From an uncultured Eubacteriales bacterium (GTDB lineage Bacteria; Acidobacteriota; Aminicenantia; Aminicenantales; UBA8522): a stretch of DNA of 42,929 bases. The notes under the pieces were generated by a model. It had not been told where the DNA came from. It did no database searches and saw only the letters and a list, made by a program, of their open reading frames with translations. Numbering within the stretch: the first letter of the stretch is position 1; each line of letters starts with the position of its first letter. The DNA is taken from positions 1 through 42,929 of the forward strand of contig CAZKEW010000002.1 of the NCBI GenBank assembly GCA_964551885.1. Reading direction: 5' to 3'. Both the position numbers and the translations under genes were made by a program. Shown one piece after another: positions 32,642 through 39,400 of this stretch.

Positions 32642-33988
32642 ATGAAAGTTACAGTGGAAGAGTTGTTGGCCAAGGCTGAACAACCCTCCAAGGATGCTAT
32701 GCGGCTTCATCCATTTTACCGCGGGAAAATCGAGGTCACCCCCAAGTGCCGGATCAGAGATTTCAATGATTTCGCCATCTGGTACACGCCCGGCGTGGCT
32801 GCGCCCTGCCGAGAAATCCAAAAAGACAGGGAAAAAGCTTATGAGATGACCAACAAATGGAATTTTGTCGCCGTGGTCTCTGACGGCTCAAGGGTTTTAG
32901 GCCTGGGGGATATCGGCCCTGAGGCCGGTCTTCCTGTCATGGAGGGAAAAGCCCTCCTCTACAAATATCTGGGCGGAGTGGACGCCTTCCCGATCTGCTT
33001 GAATACCAAGGATGCGGAGCAGATCATTCAGGCCGTCAAATGGATCCAGCCGACGTTTGGCGGGATCAATCTCGAGGATATCGCTCATCCCAAATGCTTT
33101 CATATCCTTGATACATTAAGAAAGGAATGCGAGATCCCGGTTTGGCATGATGACCAGCAGGGGACAGCCTGCGTGACCCTGGCCGGCCTTTACAACGCCG
33201 TCAAGATCGTCGACAAGAAGATGTCGGATATCAGGGTGGCTCTTGTCGGCGCCGGCGCGGCGAATATCGCCATTGCCCGGCTGCTCATCACGGCAGGTGT
33301 GACGGCGGGAAATATCGTTGCCGTTGATTCTCGAGGGATCCTGCACAAAGACAGGGGAGACCGGGAAACCCTGCAGACGAAATACAAGGAAAAATGGCAT
33401 CTGTGCCTGACCACCAACTCCGAAGGCCTTAAGGGTGACATCCCCGAGGCCATGAGAGGCGCTGATGTGCTCATCTCAGCTTCAAAGCCGGGACCGGGGG
33501 TTATCAAGAAAGAGTGGGTCGCGAGCATGGCCAAGGATTCTATCGTCTTCGCCGAGGCCAACCCTGTCCCAGAGATTTGGCCCTGGGAAGCCAAGGAGGC
33601 GGGAGCCCGGGTTGTCGCCACCGGCCGCTCCGATTTTGCCAATCAGGTCAACAACTCCCTGGGATTTCCCGGCATTTTCAGAGGGGCACTGGATATCAGG
33701 GCTATTTCCATCACCGATGAAATGTGCATCGAAGCTGCCAAAGAGCTGGCCAAGATCGCGGAGGATAAGGGCCTGAGCGAAGAATACATCATCCCCAACA
33801 TGGACCAGTGGGAAGTCTTCCCGAGAGAAGCGGTTGCCGTCGGGACAAAAGGCATCGAACAGGGCGTTGCCAGAAAGAAGATCCCGGCCGACGAGAGGTT
33901 CAAAATGGCCGAAGCGACTATCCGGAGAGCCAGGGATGAGGTTAAAATGATGATGAAAGAGAAGTTCATCATCGACCCCGACGAATAG
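32642..33988 (+). CDS. NAD(P)-dependent malic enzyme (short, no PTA-like domain)
   Basis: 448 aa with [38 protein letters not shown], the NAD(P) motif [12 protein letters not shown] and [15 protein letters not shown]. Confidence 0.93.
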
Positions 33989-34058
33989 CGGCCGAACGCT
34001 CACCCTTCGCTCTGCTGACGCTAAAAAAGCAGCGCCCCTCTCTAAGGCCCTCTGGCTA

Positions 34059-34087
34059 TTGACTTTTAAGAGTTGCTGTGATATAGA
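34059..34087 (+). promoter_or_regulatory. Candidate promoter TTGACT-17-TATAGA, ~265 nt upstream of the lipoprotein/LDT cluster
   Basis: The -35 is at 34059..34064 and the -10 at 34082..34087. If used, it implies a long 5' leader. Confidence 0.3.
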
Positions 34088-34195
34088 TTTTACCATATTG
34101 AAGATGTGAATTTCGGGGTACGTGGAGGCGGAGGAAAGATTTTAATGAGCGCGTCAACGATGACGGCCTGGAGTGACGAAACAGTCCCGCCTTAG

Positions 34196-34222
34196 TTGAG
34201 ATTGCCTGAGATTTTCCTGAGA
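34196..34222 (+). promoter_or_regulatory. Three phased direct repeats (T/C)TGAGA at 34196, 34206 and 34217
   Basis: The sequence is TTGAGAttgcCTGAGAttttcCTGAGA. The 10-11 bp spacing is about one helical turn. The site lies ~130 nt upstream of the lipoprotein ATG. Confidence 0.3.
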
Positions 34223-34352
34223 CTCAGATAAAAAGTATTTTACCAGAATGAGTGCGTGTGGTCGGAAAAAAGGAGGTGAGAATAAGAAGAAAGGGAAACC
34301 AAGGAAAGCAGACTAGACAGAAAATAGTACTTATTGAAAGGAGGTTATTTAA

Positions 34353-34949
34353 ATGAAGAATGTTATCAAAGTTTTGGCGTTGGGCTTCTTTGTGATGTCT
34401 CTCTTTACAAGCTGCGCCAAGCAGCCCACGCAGGAAATCAATGACACGAATGCGGCTGTGGAGGCGGCAGCAAAAGAAGGTGCGAGTGTCTACGCAGCCG
34501 ATGAGCTGAAGAAGCTGAATGATGACCTGACCGCAGCGATGGATGAGGTCAACACGCAGGGCAAAAAGTTCTTCAAGAAATTCGGGACGGCCAAAGAAAT
34601 GCTGGCCAAGGTAAAGGCTGATGCCGATGCCCTGAAGGCCACCATCCCGGCGAAAAAAGAGGCTGCTAAGAATGCTGCTCTGACCGCTCAGCAAGAGGCC
34701 CAGGCGGCAATCACGGAAGCCAAAGCCCTTCTGGAAAAAGCTCCCAAGGGAAAAGCAACAAAAGCCGATATCGAAGCCATGAAGGCTGACCTCAAAGGGC
34801 TGGAAGATTCTTTCCCCCAGATTCAGGCGGCTATTGACCAAGAAGATTATTTTGGGGCCTCCAGCACCGCAGGCACAATAAAGGAAAAGGCAGTTGCCAT
34901 TTCCGACCAGATCAAGGCAGCGATCGAAAAGGTGACGGGGAAGAAATAA
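34353..34949 (+). CDS. Ala/Lys/Glu-rich helical lipoprotein with two DUF4398-like repeats and a C-terminal Lys-Lys
   Basis: 198 aa with a signal peptide and a lipobox-like LFTSC. It repeats the pattern A..EGA..YAADELKKL typical of DUF4398, is low in Gly/Pro, and ends ...EKVTGKK. A strong AAGGAGG RBS is present. Confidence 0.75.
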   Translation: MKNVIKVLALGFFVMSLFTSCAKQPTQEINDTNAAVEAAAKEGASVYAADELKKLNDDLTAAMDEVNTQGKKFFKKFGTAKEMLAKVKADADALKATIPAKKEAAKNAALTAQQEAQAAITEAKALLEKAPKGKATKADIEAMKADLKGLEDSFPQIQAAIDQEDYFGASSTAGTIKEKAVAISDQIKAAIEKVTGKK

Positions 34950-34975
34950 CTCTGCTCTGAGGAATTATTCTTAGG

Positions 34976-36073
34976 TTGAACTCGGTTTCCTTCACCTTTA
35001 TTCTATCTTCGTTATTCTTAGTCTTTACCGCCTGCAAGACACCGCCGGTCCCTCCGGAGGTCGAACAAGCCAAGACGCAAGAAAACGATCTCTGGAGGGC
35101 CGGTGCTCCTGTCTATGCTGCGGAGGACTACGCCAGATATCTTCAATCCCTCGGGCTCGCCAAAGACAGGCTGATCAAGGAAAAGGCTAAAGTCCGCTGG
35201 TTCCGCGACTATGAAGAAGTCAAGGCGAGCTATTTGGTTGTTTTGGCCGAGGGTGATGCCATACTTAAAAGGGTTCAAGAAGAGAAAGAATCAAAATCGA
35301 GAAACCTTTCCGACCGGCTTGGGCTTCTTGAAGAGAGGATCGGGAAGCTCAAGAAGCTGACCCTGACGATGAATGAAAATGACCTTATCAGGCGAAACCT
35401 TTCCCAGGCCGAGGTCGTTTCTAAAGAAGCAGAGATTTTTTTTCGCCAAGAAAAATATAATGACCTCGGCGATAAAATAAAAATGATCGACTTCCATGTC
35501 GCAAGAGCGGAAGAAGCCCTCTTTTCTATTCTCGCTCGCTATGCCGATGAATCCCAGCTGGAGAAGTGGCGGAAATGGGCCGACGAGACGATCGCTGAAT
35601 CGCGAAGAAAAGGGACGACAGTGCTTCTCGTGAATAAGCTAGAGCGGACTTTATCCTTATATAAAAAAGGGAAAATGGTGGCCGTCTATGAGATTGGGTT
35701 GGGAAAATACGGCTTGTCAGACAAGCTCTATGCGGGCGATGAAGCCACTCCTGAAGGGAAGTATAGGGTAGTAAAGAAATTAGCGAATAGCCGCTACTAT
35801 AAAGCGCTCCTCATTGATTATCCGAACGAAGAAGACAAGACCCGCTTTTCTCAGGCCAAGAGAAAAGGTCTAATCCCTCCCAGAGCGGGAATCGGCGGAA
35901 TGATCGAAATCCACGGAGGAGGCAATGACAGCATCACCAACGGCTGCATCGGTGTCGAGGACAAGGTGATGGACCAGATTTTTCCCGAGGTGGCTTTAGG
36001 GACTCCTGTGACCATTGTCGGATCCCTGGAGAGCGCTGATCGCCTGCTCGCTTCCTTTAGAAAATCAACCTGA
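34976..36073 (+). CDS. L,D-transpeptidase (YkuD domain) lipoprotein with a helical DUF4398-like N-terminal region
   Basis: 365 aa with a lipobox-like VFTAC and an N-terminal AGAPVYAAEDYARYLQSL segment. The catalytic context is IEIHGGG....SITNGCIGV. It uses a TTG start. Confidence 0.85.
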   Translation: MNSVSFTFILSSLFLVFTACKTPPVPPEVEQAKTQENDLWRAGAPVYAAEDYARYLQSLGLAKDRLIKEKAKVRWFRDYEEVKASYLVVLAEGDAILKRVQEEKESKSRNLSDRLGLLEERIGKLKKLTLTMNENDLIRRNLSQAEVVSKEAEIFFRQEKYNDLGDKIKMIDFHVARAEEALFSILARYADESQLEKWRKWADETIAESRRKGTTVLLVNKLERTLSLYKKGKMVAVYEIGLGKYGLSDKLYAGDEATPEGKYRVVKKLANSRYYKALLIDYPNEEDKTRFSQAKRKGLIPPRAGIGGMIEIHGGGNDSITNGCIGVEDKVMDQIFPEVALGTPVTIVGSLESADRLLASFRKST

Positions 36074-36077
36074 GAAT

Positions 36078-36725
36078 ATGAAGAAGAAAAAGATTTTGCT
36101 TGTTTCTTTGCTCGGGCTTCTAGCTCTTTTCATCCTTGTCGAAATCATAGCCTATATCGTTGCTTGGCCGAGACGAGCGGCGGAAAAATCTCCTCCCGAG
36201 GAAAAACCGGCCGAAGGGACAAGCGTCGCCCGCCTCGAAGCGGAAAACTCATCCTTGCGCAAAAAAATTCAAGCGCTTCCGCCCAAAGCAGTCTATATTG
36301 TAGTCGATTCAGCCCAAAACATTCTCTATCTTAAAAAGGGGAACGAAACGCTCCGCAAGACCGTTGTTTCCTGCGGCAGCGGCAGCATCCTCGAAGAACC
36401 CGGAGGCAAGCGGAAATGGGTTTTTGACACGCCGCGGGGCGAATTCTACGTCAAATCGAAGATCACCGACCCCACCTGGGTAAAGCCGGATTGGGCTTTT
36501 ATCGAAGAGGGCAAAGAAGTGCCAAAAAACCAGGAAGAACGATTAGAGCCGGGCGTATTGGGCGATTATGCCCTGTGGTTTGGGAGCGGCTACTTCATTC
36601 ATGGGACGCTTTATACCCGGCTCCTCGGCAGGAGCGTCACGCATGGGTGTATCAGGGTCGGAGACGATGACCTGAAGGCGGTCTACCAGGCTGTGACTAT
36701 CGGGGCAAAGATATACATTTTTTAA
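36078..36725 (+). CDS. L,D-transpeptidase (YkuD domain), membrane-anchored
   Basis: 215 aa counted from the internal ATG (MKKKKILLVSLLGLLALF...). It has the canonical GYFIHGT....SVTHGCIRV catalytic motif. Confidence 0.88.
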   Translation: MKKKKILLVSLLGLLALFILVEIIAYIVAWPRRAAEKSPPEEKPAEGTSVARLEAENSSLRKKIQALPPKAVYIVVDSAQNILYLKKGNETLRKTVVSCGSGSILEEPGGKRKWVFDTPRGEFYVKSKITDPTWVKPDWAFIEEGKEVPKNQEERLEPGVLGDYALWFGSGYFIHGTLYTRLLGRSVTHGCIRVGDDDLKAVYQAVTIGAKIYIF

Positions 36726-36727
36726 GC

Positions 36728-37348
36728 ATGCGGATTAAGATAATTTTATCGCTCTTTATCGTCTTTCTTGTTTTTGCTTCCGGGTTTGCCGAAGAGAAGC
36801 CGTCACTGCAGAAGCAAAACCTGCTGCTTAAGGAGGAGCTGGCTCTGGCTAAGTCGCCGGCTCTGTATTTTATCTTTGACCTTAAAGAAAAGAGCATCGC
36901 CCTGAAGTCAAGGGGTATGGTTCTTCAAGAATGGAAGATACAAGGCGTTCATTCTTGGGGAGATCAACCTTTGCTTAGGACTTTGACGCTCGTCAAGAAG
37001 AGCGCTTTATTCGCGCCCAAAAGGAAAAAGATCAAACCCGGAGAGGCCGAACAAGGAAATACATTCGAGCTCGACGCCCTGGAGCTCAAAGACATGCCTT
37101 CAGCTTTTGCCCTGTATTTAAGCGAAGGAATTTACATTTATATCCGGCCTGAGCTGAAGAAGTTCATTTCCAGGATGGGCAATATCGGACATCTCTTTGG
37201 CTGGTATTTTTGGGCCCCTCTGAAAAATTTGGGGTTTGAGCTGCGTAAAAAGCCGTTCACCGCCTTAGATGTAAAATTGGCTAACAAAGAGGAGGCCAAG
37301 GCTTTGTACTGGTCTCTCGCAGACGGCATTAAAGGGCTCGTTTTCTGA
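36728..37348 (+). CDS. Secreted YkuD-like protein lacking the catalytic His/Cys (probable pseudo-enzyme)
   Basis: 206 aa with a signal peptide. By eye it aligns to the preceding LDT (ALYFIFDLKEKSIALK ~ YIVVDSAQNILYLK; EGIYIYIRP ~ SGYFIHGTL; FTALDVKLANKEEAKALY ~ VTHGCIRVGDDDLKAVY). The His and Cys positions are replaced. Confidence 0.55.
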   Translation: MRIKIILSLFIVFLVFASGFAEEKPSLQKQNLLLKEELALAKSPALYFIFDLKEKSIALKSRGMVLQEWKIQGVHSWGDQPLLRTLTLVKKSALFAPKRKKIKPGEAEQGNTFELDALELKDMPSAFALYLSEGIYIYIRPELKKFISRMGNIGHLFGWYFWAPLKNLGFELRKKPFTALDVKLANKEEAKALYWSLADGIKGLVF

Positions 37349-37405
37349 TTATAAAGGCCTTAAATCCCAATAAATAGGCAATTTTAAAATTATTTATAAA
37401 ATATA

Positions 37406-37435
37406 CTTGACAAAATCATACTCAAGTTTTATATT
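37406..37435 (+). promoter_or_regulatory. dnaK promoter (TTGACA-17-TATATT) overlapped by a HAIR-type HspR operator CTTGACA-N7-ACTCAAG
   Basis: The -35 is at 37407..37412 and the -10 at 37430..37435. The inverted repeat 37406..37426 matches the HAIR consensus CTTGAGT-N7-ACTCAAG at 12 of 14 positions. hspR is encoded in the same operon. Confidence 0.65.
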
Positions 37436-37462
37436 AGTATTTGACTAAACAAGGAGGTTCAA

Positions 37463-39400
37463 ATGGCGAAAATCATAGGCATTGATCTCGGCACAACCAA
37501 TTCGGTTGTTGCCATTATGGAAGGCGACAAAGTGACCGTTATCCCGAACGAGGAAGGAGGCCGCACCACACCTTCTGTTGTAGCCTTTACTCCTAAAGGT
37601 GAGAGGCTCGTCGGACAGGTCGCCAAGAGACAGCGGGTTACAAACCCCGAAAACACGATTTATTCGATAAAACGATTTATGGGCCGCCGGTACAACGAGG
37701 TAACCCAGGAAATCAAGCAGGTTCCTTTCAAGGTCGGGCAGGTGTCTAACGGAGACGTGAGGGTTGAGGCCCTGGGAAAACAATATGCTCCGCCGGAAAT
37801 CTCCGCCATAATCCTTCAGAAACTGAAAAAAGCGGCGGAAGATTATTTGGGTGAGAAGGTCGAGAAAGCGGTGATCACAGTGCCGGCTTACTTCAACGAC
37901 AGCCAGCGCAAAGCGACCAAGGATGCCGGGAAAATCGCCGGCCTGGATGTGGTCAGGATCATTAACGAGCCGACGGCGGCTGCCCTGGCTTACGGGATGG
38001 ACAAGAAAAAGGATGAGACCATCGCCGTTTATGACTTTGGCGGGGGCACCTTTGATATCTCCATCCTGGAAGTCGGCGAGGGCATTGTCGAAGTCAAAGC
38101 CACCAACGGCGACACTCATCTCGGCGGTGATGATATCGATCAAATTGTGCAGGACTGGATCGTAGCCGAATTCAAGAAGGAATCAGGCATTGACCTGACC
38201 AAGGATAAAATGGCCATCCAAAGGCTCAAAGAAGCAGCCGAAAAGGCGAAGATTGAGCTTTCGACAACTATGGAGACAGAGATCAACCTCCCCTTCATTA
38301 CCGCCGATGCTTCTGGGCCCAAGCACCTGTTGATGAAAATGACCCGGGCCAAGTTAGAACAGCTCGTCGAGGATCTCATCCAGAGGTCAGTCAACCCCTG
38401 CAAACAGGCCTTGGCCGATGCCAACTTGAAACCGGGGGATATCGACGAAGTCATCCTTGTCGGCGGTCAAACCAGGATGCCCCGGGTTCAAGACCTGGTC
38501 AGGAACTTGTTCGATAAAGAGCCCCATAAGGGCGTCAACCCCGATGAGGTTGTGGCGGTGGGCGCGGCCGTCCAGGGCGCTGTTTTGGCCGGAGATGTCA
38601 AAGATGTTCTGCTTCTCGATGTCACGCCCCTGACCTTAGGTATCGAGACTCTTGGCGGCGTCTTCACCAAGATGATCGCGAGGAACACGACCATCCCTAC
38701 TAAAAAGACTGAAATCTTCTCTACGGCCTCTGACAACCAGCCCAGCGTCGAGATCCATGTCCTCCAGGGCGAGCGAGAGATGGCTACTTATAACCGGACT
38801 CTGGGCAGGTTCCACTTGGACGGGATTCCGCCCGCACCGCGCGGCGTGCCCAAAGTCGAGGTGACTTTCGACATCGACGCCAACGGAATTCTCCACGTCT
38901 CGGCTAAAGACTTGGGAACAGGAAAGCAGCAGGCCATCACCATCACCGGCCATAGCGGCCTCGACGAGAGAGAGATCGAGAAGATGGTCAAGGATGCCGA
39001 GTCCCATTCTGAAGAAGATAAGAAAAGAAGGGAAGTCGTGGAAGCGAAAAACCAGGCCGACCAGTTGGTCTATAGCCTTGAAAAGTTGCTCCGAGAGAAT
39101 AAGGACCGGATTCCCGAGGCAGAGGCAAGCAGTATCAGGTCGGAAATCGAGAACACCAAGAAAGCCATGGAAAGCGAAGACCTCGGCCGGATCCGAAGCG
39201 CCATGGAGTCGCTTTCCCGCGCTTCTCATAAGCTGACTGAGATGATGTACCAGCAGGCCGGTCAGCAGCAGTCATCCTCGGGACAACAGCAGGGTTACCA
39301 GCAGCAGGATTATCAGAGCGGAGGACAGTCATCCGCTCAAGGAGGCGGAGAAGAGGAAGTCATAGACGCCGAAGTCGTGGACGACGACAAGAAGAAATAA
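37463..39400 (+). CDS. dnaK: Molecular chaperone DnaK (Hsp70)
   Basis: 645 aa with [22 protein letters not shown] and [11 protein letters not shown] motifs and a Gly/Gln-rich tail ending [15 protein letters not shown]. An AAGGAGG RBS is present. Confidence 0.98.

Follow-up and report, generated by a model that had tools for sequence, protein, structure and literature searches.

The DNA analysed here (the window) is a stretch of 42,929 nucleotides, positions 1 to 42,929 of contig CAZKEW010000002.1 in GenBank assembly GCA_964551885.1, from an uncultured bacterium of the Aminicenantales in the Acidobacteriota. Its forward strand carries a four-gene envelope operon that encodes one rod lipoprotein, here called LP198, and three proteins with the YkuD fold of the L,D-transpeptidases, LDT1, LDT2 and open reading frame 4 (ORF4). 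A preliminary description of the window had singled out LP198 as a candidate relative in function of the Braun lipoprotein Lpp, encoded next to two L,D-transpeptidases in a cassette dedicated to tethering the outer membrane to peptidoglycan. The four genes and the ribosome-binding site in front of them are arranged as follows.

34340–34344, forward strand: GGAGG Shine–Dalgarno sequence of the LP198 gene, 8 nt before the ATG, read from the sequence
34353–34949, forward strand: LP198, a helical lipoprotein of 198 residues with an ATG start and a borderline match to DUF4398; a paralogue of the LDT1 stalk that lacks a catalytic domain
34976–36073, forward strand: LDT1, 365 residues, with lipobox VFTAC (residues 16–20), a helical stalk (about residues 12–189) and a predicted YkuD domain of the DpaA/YafK–Csd6 type
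36078–36725, forward strand: LDT2, 215 residues, with a transmembrane anchor at its N-terminus, MKKKKILLVSLLGLLALFILVEIIAYIVAW, and a canonical YkuD domain (FIHGT ... THGCIRV)
36728–37348, forward strand: ORF4, the conserved fourth gene of the cassette, 206 residues, with a signal peptide, a YkuD-like fold and no cysteine

The gap between the LP198 and LDT1 genes is 26 nt. LDT1 starts with TTG, and LDT2 and ORF4 follow after gaps of 4 and 2 nt without a clear Shine–Dalgarno sequence. The strong Shine–Dalgarno sequence and ATG of LP198, set against the TTG start and the translational coupling of the enzymes, would fit a structural protein that is made in excess. A promoter and terminator scan of positions 33900–37500 gave no more signals than shuffled sequence.

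The cassette is conserved well beyond the window. The order LP198–LDT1–LDT2–ORF4 is kept in 80 species-level Aminicenantes loci, wherever the contig is long enough, and these loci keep the cassette even where the outer flanking genes differ. It is also kept in 17 of the 18 loci fetched from other Acidobacteriota, the exception being a lipoprotein gene with a single YkuD gene, and in a Bacteroidota-type subfamily whose lipoproteins are about 32% identical to LP198, again with one exception. This last is L125 (JACDJA010000244.1), the only long Bacteroidota-type locus without a YkuD gene within 5 kb of the lipoprotein homologue. The Bacteroidota subfamily includes cultivated carriers (Mangrovibacterium, Maribellus, Gaoshiqia and Roseivirga), and in Roseivirga seohaensis and Mangrovibacterium diazotrophicum the four cassette genes are flanked by unrelated genes. 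Co-occurrence of the lipoprotein with genes of the L,D-transpeptidase fold, on which the preliminary description would stand or fall, is thus seen across phyla in the fetched loci. The distribution is nevertheless patchy, with a lipoprotein match in 28 of 121 sampled Acidobacteriota genomes. No homologue of the lipoprotein was found in eight genomes of the same class (from three other families, 1.9–3.1 Mb), and it is present in 27 genomes of other classes. The ORF4 profile is too divergent for genome-level co-occurrence (it matched seven of the 121 genomes), and the fetched loci were used for this protein instead. A literature search found no paper on the lipoprotein or on its cassette.

Within the lipoprotein itself, four segments are of particular interest.

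34353–34415, forward strand: signal peptide and lipobox LFTSC (residues 17–21), in which Cys21 would carry the lipid and become residue 1 after processing
34560–34586, forward strand: basic and aromatic loop GKKFFKKFG (residues 70–78), between long helices 1 and 2, delimited by conservation and DSSP
34740–34754, forward strand: APKGK loop (residues 130–134), the best-conserved motif of the family, from conservation in homologues
34929–34946, forward strand: Lys193 and the cationic C-terminal tail, KVTGKK, from conservation in homologues

Conservation was evaluated over 460 distinct homologues, consisting of Aminicenantes sequences, Bacteroidota-type sequences and 50%-identity representatives. 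Cys21 and Pro25 are each present in all 460, and the lipobox pattern is found in 118 of 119 of the 50%-identity representatives. LP198 is a real and conserved protein with a predicted lipid anchor, in support of the preliminary description, and the Ala/Lys/Glu-rich, Gly/Pro-poor composition reported there also stands: the mature protein contains 23% Ala, 16% Lys and 8.5% Glu, only 4.5% Gly and 2.3% Pro, and no Arg, and it ends in ...IEKVTGKK. Its 28 lysines and no arginines stand out against a genome-wide Lys share of Lys plus Arg of only 55%. By the Escherichia coli +2 rule (Ala at position +2 of LP198), the anchor would be placed in the outer membrane.

Against DUF4398 (PF14346), LP198 scores 14.5 bits over residues 28–108, below the Pfam gathering cut-off of 27.9. 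Several homologues pass this threshold (P0336 with 28.4 bits), and some UniRef names mention DUF4398. From these scores LP198 may be considered a borderline or distant member. When the two halves of LP198 are aligned to each other, hhalign gives an E value of 2.8e-5, a weak similarity that makes the two repeats proposed earlier plausible, not firm.

The AlphaFold2 model of LP198, built with 37 homologues, is all-helical, with a mean predicted local distance difference test score (pLDDT) of 85.7 and a predicted template-modelling score (pTM) of 0.66. Helices span residues 26–47/49–70, 78–129 and 137–152/154–162/166–195, and are connected by loops at residues 71–77 (as assigned by DSSP) and 130–136. 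In the model the monomer is an intramolecular helical bundle with three long antiparallel helices, and in this it is unlike Lpp. Structure prediction, which the preliminary description had suggested as a check, supports the helical nature of the protein. The topology may be that of three long antiparallel helices or, possibly, a spectrin-like tandem of two three-helix units. Either arrangement would give a rod about 7 nm long, in which lipid anchor and cationic tail occupy opposite ends. Foldseek found nothing significant for the LP198 model in the PDB (best E value 0.37). Helical matches to BAR-like and spectrin-like proteins and to Borrelia BB0323 were considered and rejected, with template-modelling scores of 0.25–0.49 and E values that are not significant. 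A profile search of PDB sequences with the LP198 family likewise gave no significant match.

The relationship between LP198 and LDT1 extends over the whole length of the rod. At the family level, lipoprotein residues 13–194 align with LDT1 residues 12–189 (hhalign probability 99.4%, E value 1e-21), and the same homology is recovered by BLASTP (E value 4e-05) and by jackhmmer (E values of 1e-35 to 1e-44). This agrees with the earlier remark that the first YkuD enzyme carries the same helical module and lipobox. The APKGK loop has no equivalent in the LDT1 stalk in the hhalign alignment and is for this reason specific to the lipoprotein.

The catalytic domain of LDT1 matches Pfam YkuD (PF03734) with an E value of 1.4e-16 and 61.8 bits (cut-off 23.4). 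Its landmarks are His313 in IEIHGGG, Cys324 in TNGCIGV and Lys250, the equivalent of Lys83 in E. coli DpaA. The nearest solved relatives are DpaA itself (PDB entry 8ikr) and, after it, Helicobacter pylori Csd6 (PDB entry 4xzz), and NF040599 (DpaA) is the best NCBIfam match for 41 of 41 LDT1 domains. The active site of LDT1 orthologues reads T-x-G-C-[IV]-[A/S/G], with G-C-[IV]-[A/S/G] in about 128 of 130, so that the arginine two residues after the cysteine is gone. Loss of this arginine marks DpaA-like and LD-carboxypeptidase enzymes (PMC8263019). Using the published criteria for the active-site residues of DpaA and Csd6 (Ala145 in DpaA, Lys83 and the Trp158 pocket; PMC10653827), LDT1 resembles both enzymes in its catalytic His and Cys, in the Ala, Ser or Gly that replaces the arginine, in the lysine at the position of DpaA Lys83 and Csd6 Lys107, which is invariant in 41 LDT1 orthologues, and in an SRYYKA-like segment that supplies the tyrosine of the Csd6 D-Ala pocket. 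It differs from them in being distant (about 39 bits), in having an invariant glutamate at the position of Met133 or Trp158 and in being fused to a lipoprotein stalk of 200 residues. Judged by its sequence, LDT1 is predicted to be of the DpaA/YafK–Csd6 hydrolase or 'eraser' type. The glutamate lies two residues before the catalytic histidine, in I-E-I-H-G (35903–35923), at the place of Met133 in DpaA and Trp158 in Csd6. We speculate that an acidic side chain here might favour a leaving group of positive charge, for instance the tail of the lipoprotein.

LDT2 is a more canonical enzyme. It matches PF03734 with an E value of 4.4e-22 and 79.7 bits (cut-off again 23.4), its orthologues carry THGC[IV]R, the canonical 'writer' motif of transpeptidases, and its nearest solved relative is PDB entry 4lzh. 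The two YkuD genes close downstream of the lipoprotein are thus confirmed. They had been described as catalytically intact, and both do keep the His and Cys, but only LDT2 has the canonical transpeptidase motif.

ORF4 has no Pfam match and contains no cysteine at all. Its alignment to YkuD by hhalign is weak and covers the first β-hairpin only (E value 0.0018, probability 15%), and for this reason structure prediction was needed to recognize the fold. The AlphaFold2 model has a pLDDT of 84.8, and its top 50 Foldseek matches in the PDB are all L,D-transpeptidases. On the basis of this model, ORF4 is probably a catalytically dead YkuD-fold pseudo-enzyme. Its N-terminus varies, with a lipobox in some orthologues (IAAC in locus L006) and a membrane anchor in the Bacteroidota. 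Because LDT1 is hydrolase-type, LDT2 is canonical and ORF4 lacks the cysteine, the cassette looks like a combination of an attaching enzyme, a detaching enzyme and a pseudo-enzyme, and not like a pair of two attaching enzymes.

The genome as a whole was searched in the 2.5-Mb Aminicenantes assembly, which is 91.6% complete; the sources named for close homologues of LP198 likewise point to Candidatus Aminicenantes. LDT1 and LDT2 are its only YkuD matches, which means that the cassette holds the only L,D-transpeptidase-fold enzymes of this genome. No match to PF04728 or NF040598 above the cut-off was obtained in LP198 or in the rest of the genome, in agreement with the earlier statement that no Lpp is encoded. 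Two OmpA/Pal-type domains are present elsewhere in the genome. Covalent tethering of the outer membrane of the Lpp type is confined to a subclade of the Gammaproteobacteria (bioRxiv 10.1101/2021.05.31.446380), and yet the Acidobacteria and Bacteroidetes, phyla without Lpp, have DpaA-like proteins, whose substrate there is unknown (PMC8263019).

The pattern of conservation in the lipoprotein family points to three features apart from the lipid anchor, namely a short cationic tail, Lys193 and the lipoprotein-specific APKGK loop; a terminal lysine is not among them. In the APKGK loop Ala130 and Pro131 are each 97% conserved, Gly133 95% and Lys134 98% (449 Lys and two Arg). Lys193 is conserved in 95% of the homologues, and the tail that follows it is, in the median, five residues long with a net charge of +3. 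Lys or Arg is present in 98% of these tails and at least one Lys in 93%, and an acidic residue is found in 4%. Elsewhere in the protein, Tyr47 (98%) and Leu84 (96%) are well conserved, and in the GKKFFKKFG loop Lys72 reaches 92% and Phe74 76%.

We consider it possible, at somewhat less than an even chance, that these features serve a reversible covalent tether to peptidoglycan in which a non-terminal lysine of the lipoprotein is the attachment point. As LP198 and the LDT1 stalk are homologous from end to end, the tip of the rod would reach the same periplasmic depth as the active site of LDT1, presumably that of the peptidoglycan layer. LDT2, anchored in the inner membrane, would join the carbonyl of meso-diaminopimelic acid (meso-DAP) in a stem peptide to the ε-amine of a lysine of the lipoprotein. 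LDT1, on a stalk of equal length, would hydrolyse this bond between the lipoprotein lysine and meso-DAP, and the Cys-less ORF4 might act as an adaptor or regulator. The acceptor could be a sub-terminal lysine of the tail, Lys193 or Lys134 of the APKGK loop, and, taken over the family as a whole, would not be the terminal residue. Non-terminal acceptors are known from LimB27, where the internal Lys21 is used, and from Lpg1810, with the penultimate lysine of a Lys-Thr end (PMC12729407). In such an arrangement the DpaA-like eraser would use a copy of the tether as a molecular ruler. LP198 would then be a counterpart of the E. coli Braun lipoprotein, an assignment that is credible but unproven.

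A tether of the strict Braun type, as in the preliminary description, would be another arrangement. Here the ε-amine of the C-terminal lysine would be the attachment point and both YkuD neighbours would attach. LP198 does end in Lys-Lys, like the Lpp and OutB proteins of Dickeya (PMC12274547), and 76 of 173 Aminicenantes sequences end in Lys. In the same set, 90 end in Arg; the corresponding numbers for 80 Aminicenantes species genomes are 46 Arg, 33 Lys and one Ile. A conserved C-terminal lysine, which the preliminary description had made the test of its own proposal, is not found: of the 460 homologues, 43% end in Lys, 36% in Arg and 21% in some other residue. As about 16% of all long open reading frames in this genome end in Lys (and nine of 40 that carry a crude lipobox), the GKK end of LP198 carries little weight on its own. 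The hydrolase-type rather than transpeptidase-type site of LDT1 argues against two attaching enzymes, and the AlphaFold2 monomer is an intramolecular bundle and not a single-helix zipper of the Lpp kind. Taken together, a strict Braun-type tether appears quite improbable.

The composition of the C-terminus also bears on the covalent tether through a non-terminal lysine, and together with the following points it weighs against it. In the Aminicenantes lipoproteins, Lys makes up 46% of the basic residues at the terminal position compared with 96.7% in the body, which means that the C-terminus is where lysine is least preserved. The resulting enrichment of Arg at the tail is more in line with selection acting on charge than on a nucleophile, as far as can be read from these sequences. 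Lys rather than Arg at positions 134 and 193 was considered as a sign of a nucleophile and rejected, because Lys exceeds Arg at every conserved basic position. Lys is absent from the last 11–12 residues of two homologues from cassette-bearing Acidobacteriota, one ending in ...AAVSRRGR and the other in ...AIQQRRRR, and both also lack Lys193. The placement of anchor and tail at opposite ends of the rod derives only from the secondary structure of the AlphaFold2 model. On the side of the enzymes, LDT1 scores 37–39 bits against NF040599, for which the equivalog cut-off is 365; it may be an LD-carboxypeptidase or release other proteins, and LDT2 may make only 3-3 cross-links. L,D-transpeptidase function cannot be read from phylogenetic position (PMC10434034). 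Finally, in Dickeya the C-terminal lysine is required for attachment and also suffices for it (PMC12274547).

Some further observations concern the same tails. Arg in the Aminicenantes homologues is confined almost wholly to the very C-terminus. The two Lys-less tails belong to loci L176 (G088:C1:4533500-4544200) and L170 (G033:C4:236900-247500), both of which are atypical: in L176 a single YkuD gene lies beside the lipoprotein, and in L170 the LDT1 stalk and ORF4 went undetected by the profiles used. These two cases hint that tail and enzymes may co-vary.

A non-covalent function can be formulated that is nearly as likely as the covalent tether. The lipoprotein would then be a strut, ruler or stalk partner, whose cationic tip is held by charge on the anionic peptidoglycan or whose rod bundles with the stalk of LDT1. 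It would set or copy the distance between membrane and wall at which LDT1 works, and the enzymes would remodel stem peptides only. LDT1 would then be an LD-carboxypeptidase or endopeptidase, and LDT2 would form 3-3 cross-links. Such a function, which we regard as a serious if less than probable possibility, agrees with a tail that is conserved as charge and not as a fixed lysine, given that acidic residues are rare in it, Arg-only tails exist and Arg is enriched there relative to the rest of the protein. Hetero-association of the rod with the LDT1 stalk is plausible, given that the two are homologous over their full length. The nearest relatives of LDT1 include two LD-carboxypeptidases, Csd6 and Pgp2 (PMC8263019), and the two OmpA/Pal-type domains of the genome could do the actual tethering. 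The active site of LDT1 is less easily reconciled with it: the tryptophan of the LD-carboxypeptidase D-Ala pocket is absent and the invariant glutamate is in its place (PMC10653827), and all 41 LDT1 domains match DpaA best. Nor is there an obvious reason why a passive strut should stay linked to three YkuD-fold genes across phyla.

Conservation of the APKGK loop allows yet another function. From its near-invariance Lys134 is a candidate for either an internal acceptor lysine or a site of protein contact. In the second case LP198 could be a regulator or scaffold in the manner of LpoA/LpoB or NlpI. It would extend from its membrane to the wall and use the APKGK loop or the tail to activate LDT2, LDT1 or ORF4 or to position them, without being a tether itself. 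That outer-membrane lipoproteins can activate wall enzymes is well established in E. coli. NlpI is one E. coli example of a lipoprotein acting on wall enzymes (PMC7049810). A conserved loop found in the lipoprotein only does look like a specific protein contact, and the tight operon link to the enzymes is in agreement with such a function. We nevertheless consider it unlikely, as LP198 has no homology to any known activator and an activator has no need for the length and fold of the enzyme's own stalk. The strong translation signals of LP198 would moreover suggest an excess over the enzymes.

The covalent tether through a non-terminal lysine is the reading that we prefer. In its wider form, which we put forward tentatively, the cassette would be a length-matched module of writer, eraser and tether that arose independently of Lpp and provides the covalent link between membrane and peptidoglycan in neighbouring phyla as well as in the Acidobacteriota and Bacteroidota. 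With its lipoprotein, encoded beside enzymes of the writer and eraser types, the cassette supplies a concrete candidate for the substrate of DpaA-like enzymes. If the proposal is true, the long-missing substrate of DpaA-like enzymes in phyla without Lpp is named, and a new design principle emerges in which an enzyme is mounted on a copy of the rod of its substrate. A real link would alter how the envelope of two large phyla is understood to be built, and the cultivated Bacteroidota carriers make the question of the tether directly testable. If the association is not covalent, the cassette is still an uncharacterised and widely conserved unit of peptidoglycan remodelling.

Lipoproteins with DUF4398 are one known group with which LP198 can be compared. 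Their helical module is similar to the first ∼80 residues of both LP198 and the LDT1 stalk. LP198 differs in remaining below the threshold of the family, which is itself without known function; a literature search on DUF4398 found no paper on what the family does.

The closest functional comparison is with Lpp and OprI. In E. coli, LdtA, LdtB and LdtC carry out the attachment of Lpp, and DpaA (YafK/LdtF) releases it, while in Pseudomonas aeruginosa OprI is served by LdtPae2 and LdtPae3 (PMC8263019, PMC10434034). Like these proteins, LP198 is helical, has a lipobox (LFTSC) that predicts a lipid anchor and has a basic C-terminus, and the length derived from its model falls within a similar range (∼7–8 nm). 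Both systems also combine a canonical YkuD transpeptidase with a YkuD enzyme of the hydrolase type that lacks the arginine after the catalytic cysteine. LP198 is, however, not a member of the Lpp/OprI family as judged by sequence: NF040598 gives 13.5 bits against a cut-off of 43, PF04728 gives no match and the C-terminal lysine is not conserved in the LP198 family. Lpp is a trimeric zipper of 58 residues, in contrast to the 198-residue multi-helix bundle modelled for LP198. In the system described here the eraser-type enzyme is a predicted lipoprotein as well, and its stalk is homologous to the proposed tether. A single operon holds all the genes, including that of a YkuD-fold protein without cysteine.

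Coxiella burnetii LimB27 and Legionella Lpg1810 are precedents for the use of a lysine that is not C-terminal, as LP198 would need (PMC12729407). They are unrelated proteins, occur in Gammaproteobacteria that possess many L,D-transpeptidases and show no operon link, and which enzymes attach them is not known. OutB of Dickeya dadantii is likewise membrane-anchored, ends in Lys-Lys and is attached to peptidoglycan by L,D-transpeptidases, and it shows that the inner membrane may hold the anchor of such a protein (PMC12274547). It differs from LP198 in being a scaffold of type II secretion whose tail copies the Lpp box, and in which the C-terminal lysine is necessary and sufficient.

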